DNA of 36,077 nt from Promethearchaeota archaeon (GCA_019057355.1 DXJM01000002.1:1-36077); one strand, 5' to 3'. Shown: positions 6,001 through 36,077, counted from the first letter of the stretch. The notes: generated by a model not told the origin, from the sequence alone. Numbers and translations: made by a program.

Positions 6001-9000
6001 GTCAGATTGCTTGTTATTTCCACCTAATAACTGCTCTAGTATCAAGTCATCAGTTTTATGTGGATTAGCGAGATCGTCAGTGTCCAGGAGTTTTAATTGT
6101 GGTTTAAGATCCGCTTCGGCAATTTCAACTTCAAATGCAAATGTATTATTTAATTTAGTTCCGCATTGATAAACCAACAAGTTTGGAACACCCATCATCA
6201 AATCTTCGGGATAAAGGGTGATCAAACCTTCCGCATATGAACCTTGGTAATAAATTGTCTCAGCAGTGTTATATTCTTCAAGTTCCGCTGTTCGATCAAG
6301 ATCAAATACATTTTCACCTTCTGTACATCTTAATCCATAGGTTTCAATAAATGCTAAATCTTCAGCATTAGGTTCAAAGATAGGAACATGGAATACTCTT
6401 ATATATAGTCTAAAATCATCCAATGAATCCTTGGTGATGGTTCCCATACTAAACATGCTTTCATCAAAAATGTTGAAAAAATCATCTATAATATCATAAT
6501 CAAAACTAATATTAAAACTGACATGACCTGAATCATCAGAAATTTGATAATCATAGAAATATGAACTATATTGTTTGATTTGTAAATCATTAGGATCAAG
6601 ATAATCATATATTTCAGGTTTATTGAACATTGATGATCGAAAACCTTTAATACCGGGGCCAATTGAGGTATATTGCCCCTCTTCAGTGAAAGAAATGGTT
6701 CCTGGTGATTCAGTATCTATATAATTCCCATTCTGGTCATTCCAATCAATTTCCTTGAAATTATTTCCTGCTTTGGGTTTTATTCCAATTTCACACCAGA
6801 CAATTTGGTTGGGAAGTGGTTGATCTTTATCATCAGTGAGTTTAAAAGTAAGCTCATATTGATCAGTAATAGTCTTATGTAGATCAAGATAGGTATATAA
6901 TTCATCCTCAAGTAATTGCTCATATTCACTTGTAAGAGCAGAATATTTACGTTCAGTTGTTACAGCTCTATCACGGCTTTTGCTGGGATCATCAATGACA
7001 TATTTAATTTTACTTTTCTTACCATCAATTGAAATCTTGAAATTTTCTATTATGCTTTTCGTTGTGTCATATGGACTATTATATACAGAATAATCTATGA
7101 TAATGGTGTTTCCTTCATGATCCGTAAAGTTTGAAGGGAAATATACTAATCTTCCTATCATATCATATTTAATTGGTAATTTGAGAGCTTCCTGCCCATT
7201 CCCGATATAGAATTCACTATCAAAATCACCCGTTTTCTCAATAGGCACGTGAGTAATTGGAATCCAAGTGCCATCTTCTAACATTACTTCTAAAAGCATG
7301 TTTTGCATCAGGTTGATTTCTTCTGTCAAAAATGCATCATATTCTAACATGAATATGCTTTGCATCGTATAATTGATGCCTAATGATGTATTTAAAGAGT
7401 AAAAAATCAGATAATTTGAATCCTCTCCGGTAATGTTAAATTCACATCCATTATATAAGATCTTTTTCAAGTATAAAGCATCAGAAAGAAGATTCGACAC
7501 GGTGATAGTTGCCATATCGATTAATTCAGATATTGCATAATGTGATAATTTAATTAAGGGAATGTAAGAATATTCAATCCTGATATATGATTCACTTCCA
7601 ATATATGTAAGGAACAAGACATCCAATCCATTATTATTATTAATGAAATAATTGTAATCTGAAATGGCTATCTGATTTCCTTCACCATCATACACGTTGA
7701 TCAATCCAATAATTCCTGAACCAATTGAAGAACCGCTGATTCCCACTATAGAGCCTTGACTAACAGGGAGGAGAGAACTATTTTCAACCTGAAAGTCAAA
7801 TCGAAGCATTTCCCTGTATGCTCTCCTATCGATCCAATTAAATGTATCATAATTAAATTCCCTGAATTCAATCGGTGTCAACGCCTCATCCAAATTTGCG
7901 AATGTTGCTGGTATGATTTTCTTGCCCTGGTCGATATCATAACTAATGAGTAATTTAGTGTCATAAGGGATGAGATAATTAGCATTCCAGTCAATTATTA
8001 ATATATATTGATTTGGATAATCGGTCCTATAATAATCATAATAGTTAATGGTAATTTCTTCGATTCGGGTATCACAATAAACGATTTGTCCGTTCTTAAC
8101 TTCCCATAGCTTGAAGATCTCGTTTCCATAATCCTTGTCAATATATTCAAGCAAGTAATTATCAGAATCGATATAGCTAGATTCACCTATGAGACCATGG
8201 AGAGCCAAGGCATACTTGGTTGTGCTTGAAATGCCAATGGCATCTGTTGCTCTATATTCTATGATTTCACGCGTGATCCGGTTGATCGAGTTGTCTAAAA
8301 TAAAACCCTTGAGTTCCAAGGTTCCTTCAAAGACTAGATCAAAGTTTGTTTCCAAGCCAAAACTATAATCTTCATTCACGATGATCTCCCTGTCATTTTT
8401 GAGAGATATCTTGGATAGTAATTGAGGCACCATGGCAATTTCTATCAATTGAGTGGAATTTACCGGATCTTCAAGCGGAGTTGTCAAGAGCATTAATTTT
8501 AAACGGTAATCTACCGAATCTACTCCATTCACATCCTCAGTGATTACGAATACTGCATGATACTTGTCCACGGACTTATCCCATTCGATGATACTAACAC
8601 TCAGGAAGTTGTTGGATAATTCATCATGTAATACCGCCCACGCATCCTTGATGAAATAAATTGAGAGAGGGGTGCTTTCACCGTTTATCCTGAAATAAAC
8701 ATCGATGGTATCGGCGAAATACATGTAATTAAGTTGAGTCAAGGATACGGGATTTTTTCCAAGCCTTGCTTCCAAGTCAGTTATTTCCATATTATATGAA
8801 TCCAATTCTAACTTGGCACCATCTACCTTGCACGTGAATGAAATGTCCTTGAAAAGGACTTCCAAGTCAGAATTATTTTCCATGATGGTATAAAATTTCA
8901 AGCTTGAGAGACCAAATATCTGATATGGGAAATTGACAAGCGTACCATTAAGGTTTTCGTTATAATCTTCTATATTTCCGGGCCACACGGGAGCATCCTT

Positions 9001-12000
9001 TATCAAGAAGCTAATCGTGTTCAACTGAGACCAGTCCAAGCTTACTTCCATATTGGAAGCATCCAATCGGAGTGCATCTAAGTAAAGCGGAATTTCCAAT
9101 ACTTGCCCCAGTCCAGGTATCGTCCTGGCATATTGAGTGGAGTGCTTGAAATATTTGTCAAGTTCCAAAGAATCTAGCGTGTAAGTGAATGAATTCTTGT
9201 CATAGTCCTCCAAGGATATTTGCAAAAGATCAATCGTGCAATGAGTCGAATAAATATTTGGGATCAAGATCTTGAGGTAGAGCCCATCATTGATGCTATC
9301 TTTTAACAAGGCTTTGTAATCCGAACCGTAATAATTGAAATGAATCATGTTATCTTGTATGACAAGATTTTCAAAATCAATAGAATCATCCCAAGTAATA
9401 GAACCGTTATCATTTACAATAAAATCAATACCTTCGTTAAAATTTTTCTTGGTATCAAATTCACCAGTTTTAACGTTATAAAGATAACAATAGGTTCCAA
9501 TGCTCCTCACGTGATCGAACAATCTGAATGCATCTATATTAAAAATGTCCATTATGGCAGATTTTTCCTCTTGCAAATAATAAGTTATGAGAAGGGGATC
9601 TTTCTGTGAGGCATGTTTGACAATAGCACCATAATCTTTACCTTTGGATTCCCAATTAAGCCTATAATCGAATTTATAATTCGAATATAACTTGCCCGAG
9701 AAATAATTTTCTGAATACAAGATCAAGTCTTCAAGATCTTGGAAGACTGCTTGGTATGATTGAGTTGATTCGTTCCAAAACATCGTCTTTACGTTGTAAT
9801 TTCCAACCTTCAAGTCGATCGACTTATCAATGACTTCAGAACCATCCGGACCTATCAGAGTAAATTCAAGCGTGTCACTGATTCCATTAAGGACCTTGTT
9901 GATGTCCAAGATACCCTTATTTTCAGCAAATATGAGAGATGCTTCATTGGATATTGAGATCTTGGATACTGTGTTATAATAGGTATTTGTAATGTACATG
10001 TTACCCGCCGCATCAATTGTCTTTATGGAAATTTCATAATAATAAAGCGATGGGTCGACAAGATTGTCATGTGGAATTCCCAAAACGTGCAACATGTTAT
10101 TCGAAGAAGCTATCTCTTGGTAGTTGGATCTATATAATACCATGTCATTCTCAATGGCCTTCACGCTAACTTGATATTGCGCCCGAATTATATCATCATA
10201 ATAATGGGTTTCAGGATCAACCAAGGTTTCCAAATTATCTGAAATCAAGCATGTAAACTCGGTCCATGGAGTTGCCTTGGTAATACCTGAATAGTCAGTG
10301 TTACCATCACCGATTATGATATTTATTTCAGGACTTTCAAAATCTAGCAAACATGTAAATGTGAGATTCTCTTCTTTTTGATTATCAAGATCAATCAAGG
10401 TAATTACTAATTCGATCTCATCTCCTGTCGTGTACAAGCCATTCGTATCTAATTGTATGTTTGACCAATTACAGGTGAATTTATTTAATGATCCTGCCAC
10501 TTGTGTGAACTCATCAACAAATTGAATGCTTCCTCCCTGGCCTATGGGAGCAAGCAATTTAACCTGATCCACGTTACTGGTCGTGATCAATTCAAAAAGT
10601 TTTTCATCTCCAGCAATTATTTTCTTGGATTCTTCCGTGATATCTGGATATAAGAAACCATCCAATTCGGTACAATAGAATCGAGCGTCGGAATAGAACT
10701 CAGCAAAGATTACCTTGGCATCGCTGGAATTAAACACATCATTGTAATCGGAATCGTATAGATAACTAAATTCATACTTGAGGTATAATTTCTCGTTGTT
10801 TTGTCTCGCTTCTAAATAACCTCCATCAAGTCCAATGTCCAACACGTCATCGTTTGAGATATAACCTGTATGAAGCGTTGAATTCTCATTTAGCCTAATG
10901 GGGGATATTAATTCACTATTTATCGTGGATACTTTTGCTCGAACTTCAAGTGTATCCAATTTTATCCACGCATTGATGTCAAGCATTAATTCTTGCATTA
11001 ATTGAACCATTCCAGCATTTCGCCATTCATATTCAAGCAAGAATTCAATGTAAGGAATGCCATCTTTATAGCGGATATAGTCGTATAATTCATGCTCATT
11101 CGAGTTTTTAAGAATGACTTTACCATAATCGATGTCAAATGGAATTAAGTCTCCATCAATATTTTTAACGGAGAGCTCAACTTTATTGGAAGATAACATT
11201 TCATTCTTGATCAGGGAATTCATATCATACTTATTCGATAAAGCATCCTTCACTTCAATGCCATAATCATACTTGATATTAAATAATAGTTCATTAATAT
11301 AATTCTTGGTACCGAACGAGTTTTCAGGATTTTCTATACTCGATAGATCGACCTTAAATTCAAGACGAGGATTAAGCATCGTGATCGATTGTTTTGGATA
11401 GTAGAACGCCACAACCCGCAACCGTGAAATGTTGAAAATAGTCTTTGTGGAATATTCATCGCTAAAAAAATCTTCATCAATGACGAATCTGTATTTTAAT
11501 TGGTAGTTATAATCATCATGGGGGAGGCCATTGAACCTGGAAAAATCAACCACATTCCTGTCCATAAAAAATCCGAACGTTTTTGCATCCAGATCGTTTA
11601 AATCATATGTTATGTAATCGATGGACTTCCATTCTCCTGATTTGAAATCATAGAGTTGAATTTGTATGATGTTCGTGTTCTTTATCAATTTTGCACTAAG
11701 CTGTTTGTATGAGTTTTCTCCACCTAATGATCCAACCAACCAACTGTCCACTTGAGGAATCTCTGCGAAATCAATATAAAATGACAATCCCTCCACACGC
11801 TGGGATATCGGTATTGAAAAATTATTCGTAAATGTTTGGGAAGCGACATATTCATTACTTTTCCAGCAATCAGTGATGAATGACAAATCAGCACGCAAGT
11901 TATCGATAAAATTATTAAGATCTATTCCAAATTCATCCCATATTGCTACGTTATCGACAAAGATTGTACCATCCCGGATGTAATAGTCTTTCCGGTCTAT

Positions 12001-15000
12001 TTGAATGTCTCCCGTGCAAGTGTGAATCTTCACGGCATCTATGAGAAAGATATTTTCTTGTGCTTCGACGATGAACTTGTAGTAGAATTCTTCGGTACCT
12101 ACATTTATCAAGGGAACATCATTGACCCAACCCGTTGCCATGCAAGGGATCTCATCGAACTTCATAGAAGCATAGTAATTATCATAATGTTTGAACGTAT
12201 TGATTATTAAAGTCTTTTCATCAATGCTGTAATCCGTCGGATCTATCAATGTCAAGTTTCCCGAATCTTCATCATAACCATATAATTCGATGATATCGAT
12301 GAAGGCAGGATTGTACTGGAAAAGTTCATCCTTTAGATTTATTTCTTGAACCCCATAACCACTTGTCGGATAAAGCTTTACCATATCAACCGAAGGTCTA
12401 CAGGTCTTATAATCGGCTTTAAATATTGTATTAAGCACTTCAAACGCAAATTGTCCGCTCAAGAATTTTCCCCTGTGAACGCCATTAAAAAGAACCGTGA
12501 TGTTAATATATAAGTGATAATTACTATCAAAACATTCTTTTAAGGCGTCAAGGTTGATGAATCCTGACATGAGATCTATTGGTACCTCATATTCCGTGAA
12601 CAATCCCTTGAGATTTTCTACTTTATATGTACCTATCTTATCTACTATTTCTTGATTCCTACTCATTTTATGGAAGTGAATATTAATATCATAAGTGCTT
12701 TCGGAAACGATCACGTTTGGCAAGCCACCCAAGTCATTAAGAAATCCCGCACCAAGATAGAGTGTCAATTTAATATCAAATAATTTCAACTCGTCACCAA
12801 TTCCCAATTGTAATGGGAATAGGAGCCCGTCTGAAAACTCATGGGTGATGCTTCTCCCATTCTCAGAGTTATTGATGTAATGCACCACTGCTCGAATGGA
12901 ATCATATTGATCAAGATCAATCTCAGTTGAAAAATTAATAAAATCTACAAAACCATTTTCTTTGAAATGAACTCGGTATGGTTCCTTAAGGAAGTATGAC
13001 AGGCTCAATTCATGATTGCTATAAAAATAGTCCACACTGCCATTTGCGTGTATTCCTGCAACTTGCTCGATTATCGTTATGTTTTCATAATTGTTATCGG
13101 GATAAAAGACGGTATCAACCACGGGATCACGAGTTAAATTGCTCCAAGGCAAGGCTGTGAAAGAGAATTGGTCATAGATGAAAATGTCCGTGTTTGATAT
13201 ATACAGGAGCATTTCTGTCTTGTTAAAATACCATCCACTTGGATCGAGGACTTGAATCGTTGCGGGATTTTCCGTGATTCCGTGAACATTAACCACATGC
13301 GCTATGTCATCACCCCAAGAAAGTGATGATAAATTGAGGTATGGAGAGGAATAAGACGGTGCTTCATAAAGAGGTGAACTCAACACGTTCTTCTTGATCA
13401 CATTGGTTTTTCTATATGCTCGTGTATAAGAATATTCTTTTGAAAGAGAAGCGGAGACGCTCATCCTGCCCTTGGTCTCAAAATTATCATCGTACACGAT
13501 GTCCCAATGAGGTTTGACTCCAGAATTATCAAATGTTCCGGGTATGACGTGAGTCAATCCCAACAATGTTATAGTTGCTTCATTATTTATAAATGTAAAC
13601 AATTTATTAAAATATTGATATTCATTCCTCGATAATTTGAAAACAATAGTGCAGTTATCCTCTTCTATTCCTTCTGAATTTTCAAAATAGACATTATAGG
13701 AGTGATCAAGTTGTATGCGATCATAAGTATCAAGATAATGGTTATCATGATCCCAAATTATTTTATTTCCAGAATCATGATACGCATAAGCGATTCCATT
13801 ATAGGGTATCCAAGTAGTTCCACCAGAAGGATTATAAATCTTTAAATTAGGTCTCCATGACCAATTAACGAAGTTTTGTGTGCTCGCTTGAAAATTAATC
13901 TTAAATACCACGTCAGAAATATCATTTAGGTTGTTAATTGAAATATCAGGAAATGTTAAATTAAATGGTAATGCACTGGTAAATTCTTGTTGATGCCACC
14001 AACTTGTCGAATATTGATACATCGTGGTAAATGACTTGCCATTTCCTTCATCTGGCTTTAATTTTGGAATAATTCGAAAATCATTTATAATTGAATTGGC
14101 TGTTAAGATATTTGATTCATTACCAAAATTAGGATGAGATATCTTTGAATTTAAACCAAATGTAATTGATTTCGGACTAAATGAATTAGCAAGAAAAATT
14201 TCATTAATTGAATAAATGTCATTAGAATCTTCCTTAATCTTTGAATTATGACCTTCTAAATCACTTATATCAATCTTTGAATAATCATTTTTAACCACAT
14301 AAAATTTTTCAGAAGGGTCATTTTGGATTAATGTTCCAATGTTAAATTGATCCTCACTAATACTATCTTTAAAAGTAACAGGCTCACTTGATACACCCAA
14401 ATTTAACCTTACTTGATCTGCATTTAAATGTATGGTTGAATATGCATCATGCCAACATTGTTGAGTGTGAAGCTTGCCTCCGGAATAAGTAAAAGCATCG
14501 GTATATGCATACGCATTATACAAGTTCCCAAAGAAATCTTCAGTTCCAGATTGAAATATCCACTGATTTAAACCTACATATGTGCTAAAATGTCTATTCG
14601 AAGAATACCCTTGCCCGTTAACAGAAAAATAAATAGTTAAATCTTCGGGTCTATAACCGGTCCATTGACCCCAAGGCCATCCAGCAGAACGCATGCTTCC
14701 AAAATAATACGATACATCCAAATTTTTGATATAAACATTATCAACCGGAAGTGTCCTGGTAAATTCGAATGATAATAAGTTTAAATCAATGCCATATCCA
14801 CTTATAATAGCACAATAAACTGTTGTGCCATCATGAGCATATAATTGGTTATAATTAGAGGGATAACCACAAACCGTATGATGAATTGTCCCGGGATTCC
14901 ACTCGTATAAATGATAAGCAGGATCGAAATAGTTATTGGTTATTGAAGAATCACTTGTAGAATAATTAAAATCCGTCCACAATCTCAAGTCTTCAAAAAC

Positions 15001-18000
15001 AGTATCCATATTAATATCCTGAAATCCATCATTAAATGCTAAAATAACCTCCCTATTTGCTAAAGCGCTTGAAAAAGTCAGGTTATTTAAACTATTTCCC
15101 TCATTGACATTTACCTCTTTTGTGTATGAAAATTGAGAGGACCAATCAGGCACTCCACTAGTATATTCCACTTTCTTAAAAAGTTGGTTTTTAATTTCAA
15201 ATATTTCTAAGCCTGTATCAATATTATAAGATATTGTTAGATAAAGCTTATTACCAGAGTTGTCAAATTCTCCATTTAGTTCTTTATATTTTCCATTAAC
15301 GAAAAATTGCCAGGAATTAGTGCTATCATAGCATATTTCAATGGAATTCTTACCTTCGAGAAGATATTCGATGTCAGTAAAAATATAAGGTACTGATTCA
15401 CCGATGGTAAATTGAAGACCCTCGTAGATATCCTCAGGTTTATCAAACGTGACTATTGCCCTGTATTTTAACTTCTCATCTGCATCGATTTCGGATTTTA
15501 AAATTGGATGAATATCATCATGATTTGCTTGGATTCCACCTTTTTTCAATAAAAGACCGCTATTATCTACTAGTTCTGAATTACCATAATTAACAAGATC
15601 CCAATTATCATTATGTAAATTGTTCATATCAGAAAAAAGTATACATTGGAATTGTCTTATTCTCAATTCATTATTATAGTTTGCAAAACATCCATTAAGA
15701 GTTATTTTGAAAGTAATGGTATCATTACATATGAAATCATCTAAAACAGTTCGGGTGTCTAGTCTTAGGTAATTATAATCATAGATGTGAGTTTCGGTAC
15801 CATATATGAATTGAAATACATTATTTTCTTTTCTTTGGAATAATCCCTTGTTGATGTTGTTTGAATCGGGAGTGACCCAATCAGCCTTATGTTTGTTATT
15901 GTCTGGCTTGTAATAATTGGTATCAACTTTCGTATACTCATAATAATTATAATGATCATTAAAAACGTCAGAATAAATGGATTCTCCAAAATTATATGTT
16001 TTTTTATAGCTTCCATAATTTAATGCTTCGAAATAATCCTTCCCTTCATATTGAAAATTCTTCTCTTGTCCACCTTCAGTCAATAAACTGATTGTTATTG
16101 GTTGCTTGCTGTCTGCATTTATGATTTGGGCAAAAGCAGTCGAGATATAGATATAATCGATGCTCTCGGAATCTTCATTGTGATTGACATCAAAGGTAAT
16201 TTCAACAGAAACATTGCTTCCATCGGTCTTGTATGCACTAAGCACGTAGTCCTGTTCTGTAAGGGTATGGATCAGGTCATTTCCCGAGTAGTCATAAAGA
16301 CCATTAATGCTGACACCATCTTTAGCAATGGAAGGCTTGTAAGGGACCGTGCCTTCAACGGGAACAAGCGACTTGGAATTGATGTCTTGGATGAATGCAT
16401 CATAATCAAATCGATCAGTTCTAAAATCAGCTGAGACTGATTTTGATGGTTCTTCAACCCAGGTATCGTAATAACTATTATTGTAAAGGTACTGGTAATC
16501 TTCTGGATTGTAAAAATCTTGGCCCGACTCAAACTGGGAGAGAAGAGAGCTTGTTGACACGCTATTTCCGTTAAAATTAATAGGTCCATAATCCATTCTC
16601 AGGTTTCCAAATTCAGATAGCGTTCCGAAAGCGTCATAATTCGTCCAGCCGCTTGTAGTTATTGAGCCATCTGATAAAACATAAGGATATCCTGATATTA
16701 CATCAAAGTATTGGTAATTCCAATCTCCTGCTGAAGTCCCATATTTAAACGTGTAAGAATCATCTAACTTGTTATATAATTGGAATGCAAGCTCGTCAGC
16801 ATTCATGTCTACATTAGAAGCTGCTATGTTTCCAATATGTTGCACTTCCTCTTTTTTATAGTTTCCTGAAAGGAGACCATTCACAGTGGCGACCGTGGCC
16901 TCATAATAATATCTTACTTCATAATAGGTATTGGCATCCTCTTCATTTCGGGACTTCCAATTCCATTTATCATAAAAACATTCAAGGTTCCTCCTGTCTG
17001 AATTGATTCGATAGGAATCTTCATTAACTTGGCGTAAGGTATCCATAAAGTACATTCCAGTCTTGAGATTCTTGCTAAATTCAGTGATACTTATTATCTT
17101 GAAGATTGGATATTTTTTTAAAGGAATCAATGCAATCTGAGTTTGATTATCTGCAAGTGCATGTAAGTCCCATTTTCTAAAGTAATCTACTGCGTGATAA
17201 ATCGGTTTCAAATCTGTTGATATTACATCTGTAGCTATATATGTCTTGTGAATTCCCTTGTTAGAACCTAACAACGCATAATTGATATTATTTTCCTTTA
17301 AATGGGTGATTTGTCTTATCCTGAATTCATAAATTTCACTTGAAAAATCATCGTTCTGTGAATCAAGTGAAAATGATGTTTTATACCAGGTATCCGAGAA
17401 CTTGTCACGCAAGAAATAAATCACTCTATCGTCTTCATGATAGGTTGTCATTGAAATTCCCACTACCAAGGATTCTCCTAATTTCGTTTTAATTGACGTT
17501 ATTTCCACGACTCCACCTTTCCTTGCGTTTTCAAACATAAGAATCGAAGATTCACGAAGAAACATGTCAATGGAAAAAATGGAACTGTAAAGTTCTCCTT
17601 GGAATGTGTAAACCGATCCTACATATACCCTATCACCCATTATGTTCATCGCAGTTATAGAATTACCTACAGGAACTATATTTTGGGTAGCATTTTTATC
17701 TTGCGTTAATACTAAATTCTCGTCAAAATCGAGTCGAGCTATGAAACTCGCTCCTGTTGATTGTTCTGTTATTGTAACGTAAATTGTCAAGAACTCATTA
17801 TTCATATCATCAATGATATAATCGTTGAAGCGTGGATCTTGGAGCTTGAGAGAATATAAGATGTGTTCAAAACTGGTGATGTTTTGATTAAACTCAAACG
17901 TTTTAGATTGATGGTCAAACAAGTAAAAAGAAATGTTGTTGGAATCGGATTTTTTATTAAATGCGATCAAATCAGTATATCCATCCTTGTTCAAATCCAC

Positions 18001-21000
18001 GCTATTGATGACGTGAGATACCAATGATATTCCCATTTCGGATGTAAAATTAATGTAATATTGCTTGTTAGAAGCATTATATGAGTAAACGTATATCTTG
18101 CCCTTCAAATCAATAAGGAATGGTTGAAGAACTTCTGAACTGGAGAATATTCCATAACCCCCATGATAATACTGGGTATCAGGAGCATTATTTATTGTAT
18201 AATTCACGGGAAGATATCCGGATTCCATCGACAAGAGATCGTGATAAGTTTCATTGGAATCGATATTCCAATCAATCGTGAAATGACCATCACTTGTTTG
18301 CGCTGTACCAATAGGAACCCAGGCTTTCTTGGTAAAAGTATAATAGGACATCTCGACATTGATATTACTCTTGTCATCTTGAGAAGTCCATTCTTTTAAA
18401 TAACCATAAAATTGATAAGGTTCTTCGGTATAATTAACATCCTTAGAATAATAAATAATCTCCGCAAATGAGGTCGCATTTGATAAGGAGTACTGTCCTT
18501 CTTTAAAGACATATATATTTTGATAAACATTTTGGATATTACCAGCAAGATCTATAATTTCTGCCCGAATCGTAGAATATCCCTCGTTAAAATCTTTCGG
18601 GTTCAATTTTAAAAAGTAATAAGTGAGTGGATATGAATCAGGATCCATTGACATCATACCTATATAATGATCTGAGGCATTATATATCTTGATTTCCTTG
18701 ATATCGTTGAGGAACATGTACCCATTTTTGATGTAATAAGTTTCGGATGTCGAATTATACACGTAACCTGGAGTTAAATAAATCGTGGAATATTCCTCAT
18801 TGCTCGTGCCAAACATAATGTTTCCGATTCCATCATTCCATCCCAGAGCCCAATAATTACACTTGGTATCACCGTTTCCATCCCCTATTATCTTGCCAAA
18901 AACTCCCTCGCTTTTGAAGGGATCATATCTTGCTTTATAAATTTGGGTTGATATAATATTATCATGAACGTCCCTTGCCTCAATATGAAACTCAAACATA
19001 TCTCGCAAGTAATCTTGAGGGAAATCATAATGACGGGCAAATTGACCGTCATCATTGTCAAAACCCAATAAATTATCATGCCATTCGATGCTTTGATTGA
19101 TGAAATCCGAGATGTTAAAATCAGTTGATTGCCACGATTCACCATTGAACGTGAAAGTCTTTTTCCAGCCTAAATCACAGTGCACACCCTTTAGAATGAG
19201 ATCACCACATAAATATTCGATATATCGCTCGTCAAACGTGATTTGATTTAGCATTGAATCATAGAAGAAAGGTATGGAAACCTTTTGATCGGCTGAACAC
19301 ACCTCTTCAATGGCTATGATGTTAAGATCGATGAAGGGAATCGCTTGACTCCAACCACCCCAATAAATAATATTCTCGTAGATATATTCTCCATTGTCAT
19401 ACCATCCATCGTAAAATGAATAGGTCAATTGATATGGGTTGATATAAGTAGGCTTGCTTGGATTTTCAGAATATCGGCGCATCACGACTCGAGACCAATT
19501 TTTTTCTCCATTAATTAGTTCATATATGGCAGGATCTCCAAGAATCTTTGTTACATATAATTCTACTGAAGTAATCTCAGAGTTATCACTCAAAACCACC
19601 GTTATGTTTGCCTCGTCGCTGAAATAAATGAAGTCATCGGAAATGTCTCCATTAAATGAAAGGTTAATAATTGATGGAGCAATGTTGTCTACATATATCG
19701 TAACTGTAAAGTTGAAATATATACCACATATGTCTTGTCCGCTGAAGTGCAAAGTATAACTTCCATCCCCGAGTAAAGTAGAGTCTAATATCAAATCATT
19801 GAGACCAACAGGCAGATAGTAATAATGAGCTAACTCTATGGGATCGCCATCCACGTGGATGATCAACTCATTTAATGACTTGCTAAATAATGGTCCTTGA
19901 GAGTTTTTAAAGTGCATCAATCCAGAACCATTAAAGACGAGTCCACCATCAAGCAAGTCGGGATTGAATTCTAAGGGAGTTGAATCTAAAATTACAAAAA
20001 AGTCTTCTAAAATACTATTAAATCCTAGTTCATCGATTGCTGTTACCTTGATGTTACAGGTGCCATCCATCAATCCTGCATCATTAAGGTATAAAGTATA
20101 GGTGTTTCCACTAAACGTGATGTCATCGAGGTCAAAAAATTTCTTTTGAATGGAGGCTAATTTTAAGTTTTGTCCAATTTCATATGTCTTTTCCCACGAA
20201 TATCCAATGGCATCGAGATATGCTGTTCCAGTGGTTGTTCCTGGTGTGCCAAATATTATAGTAGTAAAATTTCCTGAAATACTTCCTTGATAACCATAAC
20301 CAGAACCTCCATCTTTGCTAATATTATCAACCCATAAATGCCAATCATTTCCACAATCAAACTCTATTTTCACATGATACCATGTACCTGCTGTATAAGT
20401 CATAAGATCATGATAACTACCATCATTATATCCATAATATCCTGTGCTCCTAAAATAAAAAGCAAGGTAATGACCACCTGCATCTGATAGCTTCAACCAG
20501 AGATCATCATTAGTATCTTCCATCATGATATAAAATTCTAATGATCCAAAATCATTATTTATTGTATCTTCTATTTTCACACCATAAACACTAGAATAAT
20601 CATATAAACAAACAGCCTTTTTATGACTATCATCAAATCCTACTACATTAACAGTCCCACCCATTTCATCTACAGTCCATCCTATTGGATCTTCCAGCGT
20701 TTCATCATCCTCAAAATTATACGTTCCGAAATAATAATTCCAATACCAGTTATCTCCAAGGACATAGTTTTCATCCCAGGAGTAGCCAAAAGCATCAAAA
20801 TAGAAAGAATAATCGGAATCAGTAGTAGATGTAAAAAACATCAATGAATCTATATAACTTGCAGGGGTATTAAAACACCCTTCACTTATTTTTAATATTC
20901 CATTAATATATATATCACAAGTATCATCGGAACAATCAAAGTCAATGTGGACGTGGTACCATGTATTAGCCTCAATGGTCTGCATTAAAATATAACTTGT

Positions 21001-24000
21001 TCCATCATGGTAGAGAAATTGATTATTCCAAATTTGGAATAATATTTTTTGATCCCCATTTTCTCTTATTCTCATGTAATTTGCTACTTTATTGATATTA
21101 TCAGTTCTAATCCAAAACTCTAAACTCCCAGATGTTTGACTTTCAAAATAATTATAGATTTCTGTAGAGTAGGATCCAGAGGTGTCATGCAATTCCAGGA
21201 CTTTTTTATGGGAATCAATTTCTGAGATAACCTTGACAGTTCCACCATTTTCTCCCACGATCCATCCATCAGGATAGCTATTGAGTTCATCATTAGTAAA
21301 GCTATAGGATCCCGGATAATGTCCGGAACAATCTATAGATTCAAGTTCTTGGGTCAATTCAATCTTGACTTGATCCACGCCATCGTAATCAGATACATCA
21401 AATGAAAGAGAGCCCGATGCAGGATCCACGTGGGTTCCATTTTCAAAAAGCGGAATAATAAAGGGACCTGCATGATCAATGAATAAATCCGTGAAAAATT
21501 TCTTGCTTTCTTGATTGTAGATGTCGAAAGCAGTCACCTCCAACACATATTCATCAGATACCAAATCTTCGACATTCAAGTTAATGCGGAAAGGATATTC
21601 TTCAATGAGCCCGTTTGAATAGGAATATTCCACGGTAACATTGTAGGCAGAAATTTCTTCCAGGAGTTCGGGTTTATTGTCATATTGGATGTAAATGTCT
21701 GTCGTGTTACCCTTTTTGTCAAAATAATAGAATAAATCATCTCCTTCAATGATTCTATCAATGCGTGAGTCCGATATATCATAATCAATCAAGAGCCGAG
21801 TAATTTCGACAACATCTTGAGGATATTCCGTTAATTCTAATATTTTTTTTTCACTCGTACTGGTAGATGTTGGAACGAGCGTGCTCGCAACATTATTTGA
21901 ATCGATGTTTGGTATTAAATCATATTGATAATGATTGTTAAACCGTTTCCCGTGGAATTCTAGGGTGGGATGCTTGTTGAAATAGGGATATCCATCACTA
22001 TTATTATAATTACTGTTTACATCCAGGTAAATCGCACTGGAACTATTAAAGACAATCTCATAATGAGCATATTGATCTATCTTTAAATCGCCAATGGATA
22101 TCTCCGTGTCTTTTGTAATTACCATCGTGATTGGTATTGTTTTCGTTATGAGATGTGAGTGTTGATCCCACAGTCTCAGGGTCAACATTTGAGAATCAAG
22201 CGCTTTTAATTCCAGTTCAAAATCGTTGAGATCAAACTGGATTGATGCCCAGAAGTAAATTCCTCCTCCTGAATAGGTTCCTTTACGTAATTGATATAAG
22301 GTTTCTCCACAGGTTATGCTTGCCAGCTGAATGTCCTGGGCAATGGGGATCACTTCAAAAATAACGGGATCGAGGATGTTGTAGACTTGTTCGCTGGAAT
22401 ATCCCTTGAGTTGCACGTCAGAATATAAGTTCATGTCATGCTTGAATGATAATTCTACTGAGGGTCCAGAGTTCCCAAGGTTATCATATCCCACTAGTCT
22501 CAATACAATATACGAATCGGGAATTTTACCTATGTTCCACGTGAATCGCTCACTGGCTTGGTATGTTTTTGAATGCCACCTGCCACCCTTGCCGTAATCA
22601 TACCATAATCGATAATAAGCAAAATCTGAAGCACTTGATTCCACATCACCAGATATTATGCAATCAAATTCATTTGGTTCAGTCCAAAATCCTGCCTTTT
22701 GTTCTATTTGATAAAGGTTATCATTTATATTTGGGATAATGCTAATGCTCGGTCCATTGCAGTCAAGACAAACTCTTTCTTTAGTCACGTTAAATTTGCG
22801 AGTTCCAAAATACAAGTAATTTAATTCAATCTCAACAAGAATATCAAATGTCACTGTATCTGTCCAAGGCAAGTTAATGAAAGGCGCTGAAAATTCAGGG
22901 GATGGATCATCATTGATTAAAAACCAATCATCATCATTTTCCTTCTTGACGAAAAATCTCGTTCGTTCAACAAAAGATTCTGTCACTGAATCAAGTTTAA
23001 GCAATACTTCATCGAGATAAATTACATTATCTTTGACAGTTATAACATCGTCAAAATTATTTATTGATAATACATGATCGAAAATATCAAATCCATCAGT
23101 CAAACCACCATTTGAACCTTCCGCAATCAAATACCAAGTACCATTTGGAATCTTGGCAGTGCTTAAAATGTGATAGAAAGATTGATTGGGGCTGGAAAGT
23201 TCAGCAACTAGGATCCAATCATCCTTGTTTTCTTCAGTTGGCAAGACGTCGTGCATGTAATATCTTACCTTCGTTAACGGAAGCTGACCAAGATTAGTGA
23301 TCGACATCTTAATATAATCCGATACAAATTTGTCATAATTTATATCAAGCCAATCACCCGTTCCCTCGTTTAGTTCACGCACTTTGCATGTTACTTCGGT
23401 GGGATCATTGGATATGACAATTTTAGAGATAGTTTTATTTCCCGTTAGACCCTTGTTGTCGTGCATTACCACGTACAATCCGTAATTAAATCCATCTTGG
23501 AATTGCGTGGTATCCAACAAGAAGGAGAAATAAGCTTGACCATCTATATATTCAAATTGGGTTTTATTCGCAATGAGATTATAACTTTGGTCTATCAAGT
23601 ATAGGGCGGCCCATTCATAATCATCTCCAGGAGCTCTCACTTGCACGTCATATTCTCCACATATGATGTCATCGTCATTGATATTAACAAATTCCTGAAA
23701 TATTTCTTTTTTAATAAATTCAAACTTGAATGAGTCGATCAAGACACCCCACTGATTAGTGAATGTCTTTTTATCCGTGATGTAATATGAATCAAAGAAT
23801 TCAGAAATGAGCTTGACTTGAATGGAGTTAGTAGCAGTCAGGATATGATCTCCATAGAAATACAATTTAATCGGTTCATTCAAGTGATAATATATCTCTC
23901 CATTTGATCCTATTACGTTAATAAAATCGTTGATATTAAGATCCTTCATTTTTATAACCGCGTTGGAATATTTGGAGAAGATTTTAATTCCAAACTGATC

Positions 24001-27000
24001 ATAAATCTCAAACTTAAATTTCATCATTTCATCTTTGAACTCTTCGAGAGCTTTCTCAGTATCCGAACCATTAACATACCTGAAATAAGGATATACATCC
24101 AGAATTGCTCTTAAATTGTAATTACTTGTGTCGATGCATTCCAAATCGGGCGTGACCAGCCCCGTTCGTCCCATAAGCTCTTCTCCATCATATAATGATT
24201 TGTTATGATAATCTCTATACTCCACGCAATCATACAAGTGAATGTTTATCTTATTTAAAGATTGAGCAGGGGATATATTTATCAAATTATTTAGGCTCGT
24301 GGGCAAGTAACGATAATAACATCCATCAAAACCTGCTGGATAATATCCATTACTATAAGAATACATCGAAATGAAATCATTTCTACCATCAACATCAAAT
24401 TGAAAGTCTCTTAACAAGGACATCCTTGCTTGTTTAGTTTTCCTTTCAAAAAAGGATAACGGTTCGGCATTGTCAAGCAAGGCTAAGTTTTGCGATCTCA
24501 TCTCCGATGTCGAGTTCCATATAGTTGTCAAGAAGAAATCATTGAAGAACACGTTAAGACCGTTTTGAACACCATAATCCTCAAAATTAAGCGTTTTTAA
24601 ATAAAACTCGAAAATAATATACAACTTCTCATTACCATCATTGAGCAAGTTTCTAATTTCTTCAAATAATGATCTTTTCTCATCTTCAGATAGAACAAAA
24701 TATGATTCCTTATTGTTCACTATCACCTCATTAGTTTCAAGATTAAAATAATAAAAGAGATCACCAAAATCCTTAGTCCATTGGCGTTTGAATTTAAGAT
24801 CGGATATCTTATAACCACTCCAACTGTCATATACCAACTCATCAGGAATGACAAGATCTGGACTTTTTTGAGCCTCCAATAATAAAGACATCTTGCAAGA
24901 GATTCTTGATGATGGTGAAAGGGTCAAATTTTCAATTTTTTTATCTAAATAACCAAAAAGATCGAAATCAACCAGGATATCTGCCTTGTTATCTGAAGAT
25001 TCCATATAATCCTCATCATTTAAGAAATCCAATTTATCTTCTGATACGACCGTAGTTATCATAAAACTACTTTCTGCATACTTGGTTTCTCCAGATTGAG
25101 TGATTACTCCAAATGAATTCGATTCTAATTTATCATCATCCTCTACATCAATCCTTAATGTTTCTATTTTAAGGTGATAATCTTGGTTTTTATTTATTCC
25201 ATAATATCTAACCTTTACTTCATTATTAGCATTGATGAAACATGAATCTAATTCATATGATTTTTGGATAAAAGAATCATAATTGCTATCATCAATAATA
25301 TCCCATGCAGATACTTCATTATTCCAGACCATAAAGTCGATAGGTTGGGAAACATCTGTCATATGAGAATATTTTAATGATACTTTTTCTGGAGTATCGA
25401 AACTATCTTCAATTTTAATGGTAATTTCATAATCAATTTCAGCATAATCAAAATTTGTATAATAAATTGTTGGAGTGCAAAGACCTGCATGTATTTGAGA
25501 CATCCATCCTACATTGAAGCCAAAAATGATCATTCTTACATTACCAGAAGAGAGTTCAGATTGTGTTATGTGCAATCCACTCCAGGTGGGGTAATTATCA
25601 CAATCCCTTCTACCTCTGTAGACACCATTTTCTGTCAAGTCCAATTGGATGGCTCCACCCCAGAGAGTCCAACCCCATACAAAATAATATTGAATTTGAT
25701 ATATGTATCCATCTAATCCCAGATCATAGTTCGCAATTGAATAAGAATCTGCTCCCAATTGTCCCATTCCACGTATTAATACATAATCATCATTGTACAA
25801 AATGCAGTATCGATTGTAAGCAGCGCTTGCTAACCAATACTCCCAACCACTATATCCCGGTGGTGTAACTGGTCCTGAGCTAGCATAAAGCGTGGCGGAA
25901 TCAAAATTTTGATGATATTCGGTAGAAGTAATTGCGGTATAGTTCCCATTAATAGCACTAAGATCCCCGTGATTGTCAATTGATTTACCTTCTATCAAAT
26001 TATCATTATTTGGAATATATGAATATGAAGGATATACTTCAACTTTTACCTTATCTAATATTAAATTGAAAGGCTGATTTGTATTGGATCCTGTCATAGA
26101 TAATAGAATTTTATAATTTTCATTGAGATGTGCTTTTTCAATATCAAATGTCCAGTCTTGAGCATAGGGAAAAGGGCGATCATCAATCAGTTCCCACTCC
26201 AAGGTATTATAGTTCCATATCTTGAAATTTATGGATTGGGTAATGTCAGTATAATAACTATAATGCAAGAGTGCTTCATCCAAGTATTTTGAGAATCCAG
26301 GACCAATCATAATGCTTGATATGATTTCCAAGTTGTAAGGTGCCGCTGCCTGAGTAGATGATATTATCGTGGTTTCGCCATCAATCACAGCTAGATCTCC
26401 TGATTGGGAGTGGAAACCTTTTTTTATTTCCATTTCATCAGGATCGGCAGCTAAAAGAAGCAATTTTCTTGGAATGATTTCAAAGGATACGTCCACATTA
26501 TCTATGCCTAATTGATATCGGTCAACATCTTCGGTTCGATTGAGACTCCAATCATCTTTTATGACATTAAAACGCAAGACATAGTCATCTTCAAAATAAA
26601 TAGGATCTTCTAGCGAAATCTCGAAGGGAAAGATGTTTTCTTGTAATTTTGGGTCGATGGCTATTAATTGAGAGTAGGTAAGATCTCCCGTGGGCAAATT
26701 ATTATAATATCTTAAGTAGCGGGGATAATATGATGCAATGGTATCTTGAAGCCAGGTAAGGAGTTCTTGCGATTGCCAATCAGAATCAAGGAGGATTGTC
26801 TGGGTTCCACTAATGTCCAGAGTAACCAAGAACCTCAGTTGATCTTCTGCTTCAAGAAGGTCATTAACAAAATCACCTAGATTGACATCAAAATAGATGC
26901 TCATGTTAGCTTGGTACTTGTCTTTATTATAAATAAGAGGTTTGAAATCAACCCAAAGCGTGCTAAACGTGGTGAGGTCCGCTCTTTCGCATGTCGTGTA

Positions 27001-30000
27001 TTGAACCATCCAATCATCATCATTCTCGCTGTTTGCAAAAGTGAAAAATAGACCATCAGACCAGAAAGACTCAGGATTGCGTTCTATTGAGTTGGAACTG
27101 TCTTTCACGACAAAAGGTCCGTAAAGATCACCAAGAATCTGGTATCCCTCGATGTAATTTCGTCCTTCATAATAATCTTCAGACCAAGAGAAATCAAGGG
27201 CATCAACATAACCAGTGAATCCCGTTGGGGAATTGTCGGTCTCAACCTGGAAATAAGTTGATTGGTTTTGATTTTGATAAAATGTGAATGTACCGAGTTT
27301 AATACCATTCACATATAAATGGTAATAATATTGACTCAATCCCTTATAATTACCATTCGTGCATTCAAAATCTATACGAAAATGATACCAGGTGTTTGGA
27401 GATCCTGTCATTCCTGAATCATGCCAACCTGATGAGTCGAGATATCCAATTTTATTTATTCCCAAGTAAACTTGAGCTAATCTATCCTCATCATTTTTAA
27501 TACCGGCATACAAATATTTTGCGCTTGTAGCGGTATTTGTTCTCATCCACCATTCGACTGTACCATTAGTTTGAGAAGTATATGTTTTTTTTAATTTAAT
27601 TGCTGCAGAACTGCTCGTGTCATCTAATTGAACAACTTTTCTATGTCCATCAATATTTTTAATTACATTAACCGAACCTCCGTCTTCAATGACAATAAAT
27701 TCTTCGGGATTTTCACCATCCTTGTCATTTTTAAAAGAATATATCGCGGGATAATCTTGGCTCGATTCAACACTAAACACATTTTCTTGAATTTCATTAT
27801 TTCTACCTTCATAATACCCTTCAGACCATGAATAATCAATTCCATCAATATATATTGAATAAGTATTTGGAGAATCGGTTCTTGAATGGATAGTTAACTT
27901 TCCAAAACTCGTGGGGCTACCCCAAAACTCATAACCATTTCCTTCATCAATGGAATTTCCATCTATCCATAAATGCCAGTCATCAGAAAGATCAAATTCT
28001 AATTTAAAATGATACCAACGATTGGCAGAAAACGGCATAATAGTATGCCATGATCCATCAAAATATTTAATATTGCCCGTCTCATCCATATATAAATAAA
28101 GTGAATCACTCGTAGAACCATCCTCAAGAGTTATATAACATCTATCGCTAGTAGTAGACATTCTCCACCAAAATTCAATCGTTGCTTTTGATATTTCATT
28201 CCATTCTTGAGACATTAATATCATATTAGATGTACTAGTATCTTTCATTTCGATCACATTACTATGCCCATCTAATTTCTTAATAATATCAATAGTCCCA
28301 CCTGTCTCATCGATGGTAAACATTGATGGATTTACTCCTGGATCCTCATAATAATCAGGATAACCAATATAATGACCTGAATCAATTTTTGGATCAAAAT
28401 ATAGATATTGAATCTTCCATTGTTCTTGCTCACCAATCTTTTTGGACCTGACTTCATAAGCAATGAAGATTGTATTATTAAATGCGTTATTTATTATTGG
28501 ATTAAGCATCTTGTAATATTCATAGTCATAATATTCTGTAAGGTCAGAAATGACCGATCTTTCCTGCAATTTATGTTGTTGGGAGTCGTATATGCAATGT
28601 TTGAACAATATTTCAGAAAAGTTTTCATTAAATGAGCTTGAATAGATTACATTCAATCGACCAAAAAAATCATATTTGAGATCTGCCTCGTTAGAGTTTT
28701 TTACATCAAAAAGGTCTTTCGAAACAGGGATGTCTTCATAAAAATTAAACATATCATCAGATACGTCGATATACACGTATCTTGAATCCTCATCAATCCT
28801 GCTCTCAAAAGAGACAGCAAGCTCTTTTTTAACATAAGATATACTAGTCAATAGTTCTTCCGGTAATTTAAACTCATCTTCAGTATATTTTACATAAAAA
28901 CAACAGTCTTCAATTTGCTCATCGTGAAACATTATGTTGATGTCATTATTACCATATGATCCAATGATTGAATAATTATTTCGATTCAAGCGAATAGCCA
29001 TATCTTCCACTTGGTCATAATCGAGTGGAGTGGGACTTATAAAGATGTCCTTAATTTTTTTTAAAGATGACGTACTCGAGTCGAGCAGTTCAGCAAGAGA
29101 ATAAATTTGAATATTTTCATTAAAACTACTTGATATCATCTTGTATTTTCTAGGGTCGTAAACGTCATGAAATTCATAATCATCAGGTAAAATAATCCTA
29201 TTATTTTCAAATTGAAGTGATTCAGGACCAAACTTAGTCAAGAAATCATTTTTGGAGTCAAATAATATTGTCTCAGTGCCAAATACATCTTTAACAGCGA
29301 TAGAGTTCAATTTATAAATATCATTGCTCGAATCAATCATTACATTCCAATTCCCATCGTATTTATATACCCTATCACTTATGCTTCCAAAAATATACCA
29401 TTCTCCATTTTTATATTGAATATCATAAGGCATCATATCTTCTGAACCAATGTAAAATGACTCGCCAGTGTAATTCCAAGTCCCATCATATTTAAGAACA
29501 TTTTTGGTCATCATATCAATGATATACCAATATGAACCATTCTTGTAAATGGAACCAGGTATAATTTCGCTAAGATTGTAGGCTTCACCGGAATACTCCC
29601 ATTGAGAATTGTATTTATAGACAGAAGATGTATTTAATCCAACCATCCACCAATATACTCCATCAAAAAATATATCCCAAGGCATAGGATCTTCTTGGGT
29701 TAAATCGTGTGAATCATCTTGATAGTTCCAAAGCTCATCATATTTACACGCGGTAAAGTTTGGATATCCGAGAACCCAATAATATTGCCCATCATGAGCT
29801 AAAGAATAGGGGTGTTGTAATTGATCACCCATATAGCGATTTTCCGATTCATAAGCAAATTTCTCATCATATTTATAAACATTGCCACTATCAAATCCCA
29901 AAATCCACCAGTCATCACCATCAGGAATTATGCCATATGGATCTGAGGTTTGATCATTAAGTAAGTAGGATTTTGCTCCAAACCAATCGAAATATAATTC

Positions 30001-33000
30001 CGTGCTGTTTTCAGCAATAATGGATGTATTTAGATACAGTGCTGTACTTGCTTCTGGTGATTCTATTTTTGCATCATAATTTACGGAATTTTCTTGATTA
30101 TCATCAATTCTTACAGGTTCAATAAAGACACCTCCGTTATAGCTGCTATCCAATCGAGCATAACACACGTGCTTTTTAATATCATTTGGGTTTTCATTAT
30201 CTCTTGAACCATTATCCATATTTATCCACGTTGTATTTTCAAAAATGAGGTGAACGATGCAATCTTGAGTTAGAACATTTCCATCTTCGTCATACTTGAT
30301 ATCTCGCGGTGTAATTGCAATATCTGGAGCAAGATAAGAGTGATAGTCAAGATCTGAAGGATCATAACTGACTACTTCCTTGATTTCTTCAAGCATAAAA
30401 TCAAATAAACTAATTCGACCATAATATATTGACCATTCTGTTTCTCCTTGAGAGTGTTGTTCAGTGTTCCTTTGCTGCCAAGTAAGGTGCAAGTCAGTTT
30501 CCGATAAAGCCATTGATGGTGCTAACTGGTAGGTATTGTCATCACCTGATTCATAAATTCTCTTGGGTGTTGAAAATTGACCATCAGGACGATATGCCCA
30601 CGTAAGATAAATTTTCCATAAATCCTCCTCGTTAAATTTTCCTGAAAAGAGAATAATGATCAAATTATTATTTGAAACTATCTTGGGCACGACATATCTT
30701 TGCCGAATTTCGTTAGTTATTGAATCTGAATCACCGAGACTCACGAATTCGTCCAAAATTTCACTTCCATAAGCATCAGATACATTGATGGGCATTCTGG
30801 AACTTTGAAGATCAAACACACCCATACCATTACCTTCCACCTCCCTCCACGTTGGGGGCATGTTAACACCATTAGAGGGGGAAAATATGGGATTTTCATA
30901 AGCATCTTCTGAAAATAATCCGCTGAAGTATTTCCACGAATTATCCTGTCGGAAATCATTGTAGAAATAGTTATTAGTAACAATTCCAGGATACTTGTTA
31001 TAAGATAAAATTTCATTTCCTAACGTAAGTGGATTATCAAAAGTCCATAAAAGAGGCTCTGCCGTGCCTAAGAGAGGGGAACTAAATTCATTATACCCAT
31101 CCTCAAATTCAAAACCTCGATAGTAAGTCGGTGGATAATTCACTTCTAAATGGGCATAATCAAACTTAATTTCGATTAGATCATTACTATCGACAATGTT
31201 ATCATAAATCAAATTAATGATAATTTTAATGCTAAATCTTTGTCCTCCTTCGGTGAAGAAATCCCTAAGATCTACATTCACTACTTCCCAACTCGAGGTT
31301 GTTGAAGTGATTGGTTCCTGAAAATGGACTTCTTCATGGACTAAATATCCGTTTCTAATCAATTGTGTCTTTACCAAACCGGTGATCTGATCTGAACCAC
31401 CATTAATGATTTTCACCATATCATAACTTAATTTAAACTTCGCGGAATCGGCAATCGTTCCAATATAGGTCAAAGTAGGACTTTCAATAAATACATTTTC
31501 TGAGTTTGAAATGGTCCTATAGATATAATCAGGATTTCCAGAATATTCAGTGAAAATTGGAGATTCTGTCCATGAAATTTCGTTATTATTAAATTCATGA
31601 TGGTAAATTAAGGCACTGGTGGTTTGGAATTCATTCTTGTTAAAAAAATTAATATCAGTTCCGTTCGTAGTTCTTTGAATCTCATTTATTTCTTGATAAC
31701 TCGTGTGTATATACTTATTTTTAGTTATCTCACAATCTTCGATATGGGAAGTGGTCTTGTAAAATGCATTTTGTTCCCCATTAAAAAAGATTTTACCTTG
31801 GGTATATTCTTTGAACCTGCTATAAGTAAGATGCTTGTAAGAGATTATACCATCAGGTCCAATTTGATAATCTGTCAATTTTTTAAATACTGGTTTTAAA
31901 CCTTCACGTTCTGTTATATACAATGAGACTTCCCCTTGAACTATTTCCTGTAAAGAATTTTCCATTCGAGTATTAAAAAAGTTGTTCCACCCCAACCCAT
32001 CATTATTTTCTTCGCAATAAATGCTCCCTCGAGGATAAATTAAATCTGATTGGTTAAGATTGTTTGAATCTAAATTATCATAATAAGGATTAAAATAGAT
32101 TTTATCTTTTTGAATATCAATATTAAAAACAAGTGGATCAGAGACCTTGCCCAACGTGAGCAGTAAATCCTGAACCCAGTACACTTGCATTTCATAACTC
32201 CCGGGTATAATATCCCTCTGAACGTCAGTGAAATCTATTTCGAGAACCACTAATTGTTTCAAGAAAGGAGTGCGAAGGGTTTTAGAGGTCAGAATATGAT
32301 TCATCCGGAAAAGATCTGAATGTTCTCCTTCTAAGTATATTTCTTTGGCAATCAGTTTCACGACCAAGGTGCGAGCCTCAAAAATCCCGATGGATACTTG
32401 AGGAATTCTCACAAGTAAAAGGCCATTAAAAGTCAAATCTGTAAGATTTTCAGGTGATTTGTAAAAGATTAGAGAATTAACATCATATGAATAATCTTGA
32501 TTATTTCTATGATATTGGGGCGCAACCGTAAATTCAACATCGGGTTGCTGGAGTGCAGTAAGCGTTCCTGGGAAGCATCCAATAAGGAAAGGAAAGATCA
32601 TTAAAAAGAGTACCACCATTATGGCTAAAAGTTTTTTTCTATATTCTATTTTTGTATATTGTTCGGGAGTCTTCCAGGGATGGGTGATTAAGTAGATTTG
32701 GTTCTTAAATGAGTCCATAGATGAAATACCTTTTTTTCGAATCAAGTCTGCCCGTCGATTCGATTTAAGGCGCGATCGGGGAAAGAAAATGCCGATAATG
32801 CCTGCCATAATGAAAAAAGAGGTTACTGATAACAAGGTATCATAATAGGCAAACAAAAAGAAGAGCAATAAAAAGGAACCGATAAACAAGGTTATAATAC
32901 AGATCACGTATTTTATGGTATCATAAACATCCTTTGCTGAGGATATCATCGTTCTCCTTAAACTTTTCCTCTTTTTAAATCTCTTTTTCGATAATATCCA

Positions 33001-35285: not shown

Positions 35286-35651
35286 TTAGGTAGAAGAGAA
35301 TAAGGTTTTTTCCCGTTTAATGTTACAATTTGTTTTGCTTTCCCTGTCTATTAGAGATGCCAGAGTGGGATTCAACTCGTTTTTTAAATGAGTTAAACCT
35401 GATTGAGAAATAAAATTTTCTTTCCGTTTATTTCCTGGTTTTTCTGATGCTTCATAATTCCTTAGAATAAGTTCTTTATCCTCTAAAAATCTTAGAACAT
35501 CATTGATTGTTGTTTTACTTCTACCGATGATATTTGCGATTTCCTCAACAAAAACACCTTTATTCGCCCCATAAACCTGATAACGATTTTTTAAAATAAT
35601 AAGTACCCTCAAGCTTACTGATAACGAAAGATTAAATCGTTTTACTCCCAT
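35286..35651 (-). CDS. Winged helix-turn-helix transcriptional regulator (ArsR/MarR-like fold), 121 aa
   Basis: This ORF is in the track. LRVLIILKNRYQ...GVFVEEIANIIGRSKTTINDVLRFLEDKELILRNYEASEKPGNKRKENFISQSG reads as helix, turn, recognition helix and beta-wing, followed by a charged C-terminal tail. It is on the same strand as the giant gene and directly upstream of it. Confidence 0.7.
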   Translation of the reverse strand: MGVKRFNLSLSVSLRVLIILKNRYQVYGANKGVFVEEIANIIGRSKTTINDVLRFLEDKELILRNYEASEKPGNKRKENFISQSGLTHLKNELNPTLASLIDRESKTNCNIKREKTLFSST

Positions 35652-35950: not shown

Positions 35951-36077
35951 TTATGACGCATTATATAATTTAGCATAATTGCATCGAGATTGAATTTCAG
36001 GAGATGATCGTTTATGTTTCAACACGAACTTCACGATTTCGCGCTTGAGATCATTGAAGTCGTTAAAAAACGTGTTA
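35951..36077 (-). CDS. 3' end of an unidentified reverse-strand gene entering from the right edge (41 codons plus TAA)
   Basis: An open frame runs from the window edge to TAA at 35951-35953: NTFFNDFNDLKREIVKFVLKHKRSSPEIQSRCNYAKLYNAS*. The same frame stays open for a further 37 codons after the stop (see findings). A competing + strand start exists at 36014. Confidence 0.35.
   Translation of the reverse strand, partial: NTFFNDFNDLKREIVKFVLKHKRSSPEIQSRCNYAKLYNAS

Follow-up and report, generated by a model that had tools for sequence, protein, structure and literature searches.

Bacterial lipoprotein signals (Lgt/LspA, PROSITE PS51257) are recognised by a K/R-bearing n-region, an uncharged h-region and a lipobox of the form [LVI][ASTVI][GAS]C, by an N-terminal position (the cysteine 15-35 residues from the initiator, with K or R in the first seven) and by a cysteine that is invariant at +1 among orthologues. 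In archaea, no homologues of Lgt or Lsp have been identified and few lipoproteins are predicted in Asgard, while the lipidation enzyme AliA (arCOG02177) is present in Euryarchaeota and DPANN; the AliA/AliB-dependent lipobox proteins, as described in Haloferax volcanii, bear N-terminal Sec/Tat signals and belong to these same lineages (PMC12462473). The signal-anchors of polytopic proteins, on the other hand, combine a hydrophobic span with a positive cytoplasmic flank and an exported domain that follows directly. Finally, Asgard genomes are known to contain giant genes (PMC8813620, Extended Data Fig. 7), and among archaea it is in Asgard that proteins above 10,000 aa are most numerous (10.1101/2023.11.21.568195, Fig. 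1c).

At the locus analysed here, a lipobox-like string is found 730 residues into a giant protein. The window, that is, the whole stretch of 36,077 nt that was analysed (34% G+C), is occupied nearly completely by one reading frame. This minus-strand frame runs without stops from 34887 to 1, leaving the window at position 1; its first ATG lies at 34827, with GGAG 10 nt upstream, and the resulting protein comprises at least 11,609 aa, its C-terminus lying beyond the window. As in other Asgard giant genes, the ORF exceeds 10,000 aa, is mostly devoid of recognisable domains and adjoins a transposase. Unlike the Otus/Ephialtes aloposon pairs, it has no tandem twin gene or tRNA target visible in the window, and no evidence was found that the family belongs to the described pairs. 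The features to which the text refers are the following:

1..34827, minus strand: giant ORF, encoding nine helices in an N-terminal membrane region and then 10,858 aa or more of acidic ectodomain (stop-free frame 34887 to 1, translation, GGAG).
34336..34644, minus strand: TM1-TM4 (residues 62-164), two helical hairpins drawn from hydropathy and loop charges, without detectable homologues.
33151..34335, minus strand: Lys/Arg-rich loop (165-559), predicted cytoplasmic, K+R 18.5%, net charge +32, lineage-specific, no Pfam match.
32779..33150, minus strand: TM5-TM8 (560-683), two hairpins, where the family-wide conserved region begins (phmmer, with match starts at query residues 548-633; alignment A3; hydropathy).
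32632..32778, minus strand: basic TM8-TM9 linker (684-732), predicted cytoplasmic, net charge +10, ending in RKK (730-732) and containing M704.
32575..32631, minus strand: TM9 (733-751), predicted N-in/C-out signal-anchor helix ending in L-I-G-C751 (hydropathy, AlphaFold2, family motif).
32575..32577, minus strand: TGC codon of Cys751, at the interfacial aromatic position of the family.
31825..32535, minus strand: two beta-sandwich (Ig-like) domains (about 765-914 and 936-1001), the best-conserved part of the family (AlphaFold2 pLDDT 75-93, alignments A1 and A2).
35289-35651, minus strand: winged-helix gene of 121 aa upstream of the giant gene, TrmB/MarR/Lrs14-like at a sub-threshold level.
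About 35951-36077, minus strand: IS630/DDE_3 transposase, present with its 3' end and likewise upstream of the giant gene.

Outside its membrane region the giant protein is acidic (D+E 15.3% vs K+R 7.1%), and cysteine is infrequent, as the first-pass annotation had noticed in partial translations, with 84 of the 11,629 translated residues (0.72%). Pfam and PDB sequence searches of the ORF returned nothing except one Sialidase-like CBM (Pfam), far downstream at residues 4604-4668 approximately. Internal repeats of about 200 aa, with 30-33% identity, are found around residues 2150-2560 (nt 27150-28380 approximately, minus strand) and 4490-4900 (nt 20130-21360 approximately, minus strand), one of these sets overlapping the CBM match, and a further repeat pair lies at residues 1620-1850. 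In the cytoplasmic N-terminus there is a C-P-L-D-C pair (residues 28-32, window 34732-34746, minus strand), and the N-terminal region of the relative P0009 has a fuller Cys-rich, zinc-ribbon-like segment. Regarding the genes upstream, just one contig bearing the upstream gene of the window was found, in an ENA assembly with the label 'fossil metagenome'; the ENA contig L001 has the same winged-helix and transposase pair, the transposase being arranged there as a frameshifted two-ORF layout. Small HTH genes are also present near the giant-protein homologue of locus L002.

The membrane region was delimited by Kyte-Doolittle hydropathy. Eight helices precede the lipobox-like string (62-82, 86-104, 119-143, 145-164, 560-580, 584-612, 641-660 and 664-683), with no stop in the open frame, in agreement with the first-pass reading, and they are followed by a ninth, TM9, at residues 733-751, with a 19-residue mean of 2.92 and a length sufficient to span the bilayer. 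Within the window, no convincing transmembrane segment was detected by hydropathy in the next 10,858 aa. The segments on one side of these helices are strongly basic (net charge +8 for the N-terminus, +4 for 105-118, +32 for 165-559, +9 for 613-640 and +10 for 684-732), whereas the loops on the other side are of 1-3 residues with net charges from -1 to +1, and the first 49 residues past TM9 have a net charge of -4. By the positive-inside rule, these charges point to an N-in topology with nine helices and the C-terminal part outside. Thus, TM9 is predicted to be oriented like a signal peptide, with its C-terminal end at the outer face of the membrane. An AlphaFold2 model of residues 545-1010, built on an eight-sequence alignment (mean pLDDT 69), shows residues 721-750 as one continuous helix, after which come a short linker and the two beta-sandwiches (pLDDT 75-93). 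The only structures that Foldseek matched to this model were Ig-like sandwiches of a generic tandem kind, among them transglutaminase C-terminal barrels and pilus chaperones, and sequence searches of the membrane region gave no usable Pfam, NCBIfam or PDB match for the five-helix module TM5-TM9.

The lipoprotein-like motif which the first-pass annotation had singled out is real. Residues 730-751 consist of RKK (730-732), 18 uncharged residues and L-I-G-C (748-751), the cysteine codon occupies 32575-32577, and M704 corresponds to the ATG at 32716-32718; the residue numbers and positions given initially were right, while the string then quoted, from RKK to CFPG, covers 730-754 and not 730-752. 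Both the PS51257 core and a G+LPP-style pattern have a single match in the whole protein, and in both cases it is Cys751. With regard to composition, the string has a lipobox, an uncharged h-region and a K/R n-region, like bacterial lipoprotein signals and, in the form of the lipobox, like the AliA/AliB-dependent proteins. Nevertheless, it is not N-terminal, the cysteine standing at position 751 when counted from M1 and at position 48 when counted from M704, and, as detailed below, the cysteine is not invariant among orthologues; moreover, the named genomes of the relatives are archaeal. The motif exceeds chance only moderately: the PS51257 core also occurs at four non-homologous transmembrane positions in relatives (P0003 C412, P0005 C705, L006 C257 and L012 C743), among some 220-316 hydrophobic helices, which amounts to about 1-2% per helix.

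Since word-indexed protein searches with residues 1-1100 gave no matches, and nothing came of scanning genome, metagenome and viral contigs with single proteins, recovery of the family needed an exhaustive phmmer search together with a small alignment of a conserved block. With residues 1-1200 as the query, phmmer found 21 proteins among 1.84 billion representatives (best E = 4e-107), all of the matches beginning between query residues 548 and 840. The conserved block A2 retrieved 5 loci in GTDB species genomes and 18 in JGI metagenome contigs. Alignment A1, of 16 sequences, diverged too much to serve in the locus scan, and with it the word-indexed search returned only P0017. The relatives come only from Asgard or unclassified archaeal MAGs and from metagenome contigs, and the labels of the five genome loci are Candidatus Thorarchaeota, Promethearchaeota (three) and 'uncultured archaeon' MAGs. 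Judging from this occurrence of its homologues, and not from a marker gene, the window probably derives from an Asgard archaeon.

Upstream of residue 548, phmmer found no homology among the 1.84 billion representatives. Residues 1-547 (window 33187-34827, minus strand), with four transmembrane helices and a Lys-rich loop of about 395 aa, are thus without detectable homologue. The N-terminal regions differ greatly among the relatives as well, and a separate domain preceding TM5 is common to P0005, P0006, P0009 and P0013. At two loci (L009 2706-2999 and L010 2692-2943), a short ORF (97 and 83 aa, respectively) stops shortly ahead of the annotated start of the giant homologue, on the same strand; these ORFs may be small leader genes or mis-called N-termini. 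About a dozen relatives have a semi-conserved C-P-x-P-x-F motif 10-14 residues past TM9; at this site (residues 762-768 approximately) the query has QQPDVEF, without cysteine.

The nature of the motif becomes clearer when TM9 is compared across the family. In an alignment of 32 non-identical TM9 regions, the column of Cys751 contains W in 22, F in 5, C in 4 and S in 1. Of the residues before it, position -1 is G in 23 and A in 6, position -2 is L in 19 and I in 7, position -3 is mostly I, L or V, and position -5 is P in 16 and S in 9. The end of TM9 can thus be written as F-[PS]-[TM]-[ILV]-[LI]-[GA]-[W/F], a small residue followed by an interfacial aromatic. The [ILV][LI][GA] part is kept regardless of the residue that follows, and precedes Trp in most relatives; when W is allowed in place of C, the PS51257 core matches the TM9 end of 12 relatives. 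As these residues are already conserved, a single change from TGG to TGC suffices to produce a lipobox. The codons used in the column are TGG for Trp, TGC or TGT for Cys and TTT for Phe, which places Cys one step from Trp and on a one-step path between Trp and Phe.

Cysteine is found at this column in the query and in three other sequences, P0003 (PFLIGC), P0021 (MMLAC) and L019 (ALIMC). The last of these has Met at -1 (LIMC) and is not a lipobox, which leaves three of the four cases compatible with one. The idea that the Cys variants share one origin was rejected, for neighbour-joining trees do not group them: the query, P0003 and L019 fall on three separate branches among W/F sequences, although the trees are star-like with long branches and hence suggestive more than firm. 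Judging from the trees and the alignment, several independent origins of the cysteine are likely, Trp, the majority state, is probably ancestral, and Cys751 is best read as a lineage-specific replacement of the interfacial Trp of the family.

On these grounds we hold with high confidence that residues 733-751 are TM9, an uncleaved N-in/C-out signal-anchor and the last helix of a conserved TM5-TM9 module, in a protein made as one polypeptide, whose Cys751 derives from Trp; the lipoprotein-like motif is very probably ordinary. This was the plainest of the readings proposed at first ('simply TM9'), and the Trp-dominated column, the uninterrupted ORFs and the topology all speak for it. TM9 resembles the signal-anchors of polytopic proteins in its hydrophobic span of 18-19 residues, sufficient for the bilayer, in its positive-inside flanks, in the exported domain placed directly after it and in the 'belt' formed at the outer interface by a small residue and an aromatic (W/F in 27 of the 32 family members); furthermore, the helix is conserved contiguously with both flanking modules. 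It differs from them in that the belt residue of the query is Cys, that the domain to be exported is of exceptional length (10,858 aa or more) and that its five-helix module has no Pfam, NCBIfam or PDB family. According to this model, the basic linker ending in RKK would stay in the cytoplasm, and TM9 would insert N-in/C-out as an uncleaved signal-anchor, launch the acidic ectodomain into Sec-dependent export and keep it attached to the cell surface. A Trp codon TGG would have become TGC at the outer end of the helix, the string matching a bacterial lipobox from then on. A single polypeptide would be made, and neither lipidation, SPII-type cleavage nor internal initiation would be needed to explain the sequence. 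Of these elements, the sequence, the hydropathy and charge pattern, the column statistics, the open frames and the archaeal labels of the named genomes are observed, and we infer that export depends on Sec, that the protein is displayed at the surface and that it is not processed. Three observations sit less easily with the signal-anchor reading: the lipobox match is complete, from the K/R n-region through the 18 uncharged residues to L-I-G-C; the predicted orientation puts Cys751 at the outer leaflet, within reach of a lipid transferase; and Cys recurs in 4 of the 32 relatives, three of them lipobox-compatible.

The continuity of the gene bears on all the readings that divide the protein in two. 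At each of the 23 genomic and metagenomic loci, the frame is already open 330 aa or more before the ectodomain match and stays open through and beyond TM9. The first-pass annotation had proposed looking in orthologues for a stop or start between the membrane module and the ectodomain; when this comparison was made, none appeared in any relative with upstream sequence. Two apparent stand-alone starts were discarded: that of P0021 (a 156-aa call beginning 34 residues before the Cys) is an internal Met within a longer ORF that has two more upstream transmembrane helices, and that of P0007 begins inside a hydrophobic segment, which suggests a truncated gene call. The gene of L002 (GCA_019057735.1) is broken about 160 residues past TM9 and not at the junction; its homologue (2806-8242) is split into ORFs of 391, 1073 and 314 aa, as either a pseudogene or an assembly/frameshift artefact would be. 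The L008 and L003 homologues also end prematurely.

Among the alternatives, a later release or trimming of the ectodomain by another protease (an archaeal signal peptidase I or a sheddase), acting in the 10-15 residue linker past TM9, seems unlikely. Between the helix and the first beta-sandwich there is indeed a short non-conserved stretch (752-764), processing is known for some giant surface proteins, and possible cleavage is discussed for them (10.1101/2023.11.21.568195). However, the family alignment has no conserved small-x-small motif past the helix, and no other anchor is visible in the window, the C-terminus lying outside it.

We regard as very improbable a lineage-specific lipidation, by which Cys751 would carry a thioether or acyl modification on the outer side of the membrane and, whether or not the polytopic part is cleaved off, give a lipid-anchored ectodomain. 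The unique and full lipobox match, the correct N-in/C-out orientation and the recurrence of Cys there in the query and in P0003, P0021 and L019 are what such a site would call for. Nevertheless, 28 of the 32 relatives have no Cys and L019 has Met at -1; the lipobox-like residues are conserved for another reason, since they stand before W/F; and lipobox cores turn up at random transmembrane positions in relatives. Moreover, counted from M704, the cysteine falls at residue 48, outside the 15-35 of PS51257, and no ATG, GTG or TTG codon offers another start between M704 and L733. The distribution of the known machinery described at the outset (PMC12462473) also argues against it, and the phrase 'internal lipobox' had no match in the paper library searched. 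The lack of the Cys or lipobox in orthologues had been named beforehand as an observation that would count against the two-product readings, and most relatives do lack the Cys, one of the four Cys-bearing cases being without a lipobox besides. That Cys751, together with the independent Cys of P0003 and P0021, forms a recurrently acquired lipidation site in an internal signal-anchor is, similarly, a long shot; if true, an internal lipobox in a polytopic protein of an Asgard archaeon without known machinery would imply an undescribed lipid-transfer pathway.

An ancestral fusion at the TM8-TM9 junction, joining a polytopic protein to a giant lipoprotein whose old signal peptide survives as TM9, is hardly credible. 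A modular-looking architecture and a lineage-specific region before residue 548 can be cited in its favour. In every relative, however, homology is unbroken between TM5 and the ectodomain, TM9 included; the GTDB genomes, JGI metagenomes and 1.84 billion representatives searched yielded no ectodomain encoded by a gene of its own; and the majority state of the Cys column, probably ancestral, is Trp, a cysteine being absent from 28 of the 32. A module boundary, if any exists, would lie before TM5.

As for internal initiation, with M704 starting a second product that has its own signal peptide, the in-frame ATG 47 codons before Cys751, with AGGT 11 nt upstream, speaks for it, but it has next to no chance, given that 61 of the 192 in-frame ATGs of the giant ORF have a Shine-Dalgarno-like match at least as good, that 42% of positions in the giant protein have an in-frame Met 18-50 aa upstream, that the TM8-TM9 linker, basic in every relative and variable in sequence, has no Met in most of them (P0001, P0003, P0005, P0016 and P0017 in alignment A3) and that the resulting n-region would span 29 residues.

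Lipoprotein processing, internal initiation and a lipoprotein fusion are thus not supported, and the signal-anchor reading of TM9 is the one retained. The apparent internal lipoprotein signal is, on that reading, the incidental result of Trp having changed to Cys in a signal-anchor of the ordinary kind, and matters little as it was originally framed. It does show how a helix end made of a small residue and an aromatic can mimic a lipobox, which calls for caution with pattern-based lipoprotein calls, especially in archaea. Furthermore, TM5-TM9 and the two Ig-like domains would constitute the membrane anchor of an unannotated family of giant surface proteins in genomes of the Asgard lineage, and the definition of this anchor could aid the annotation of fragmented giant genes in Asgard MAGs.
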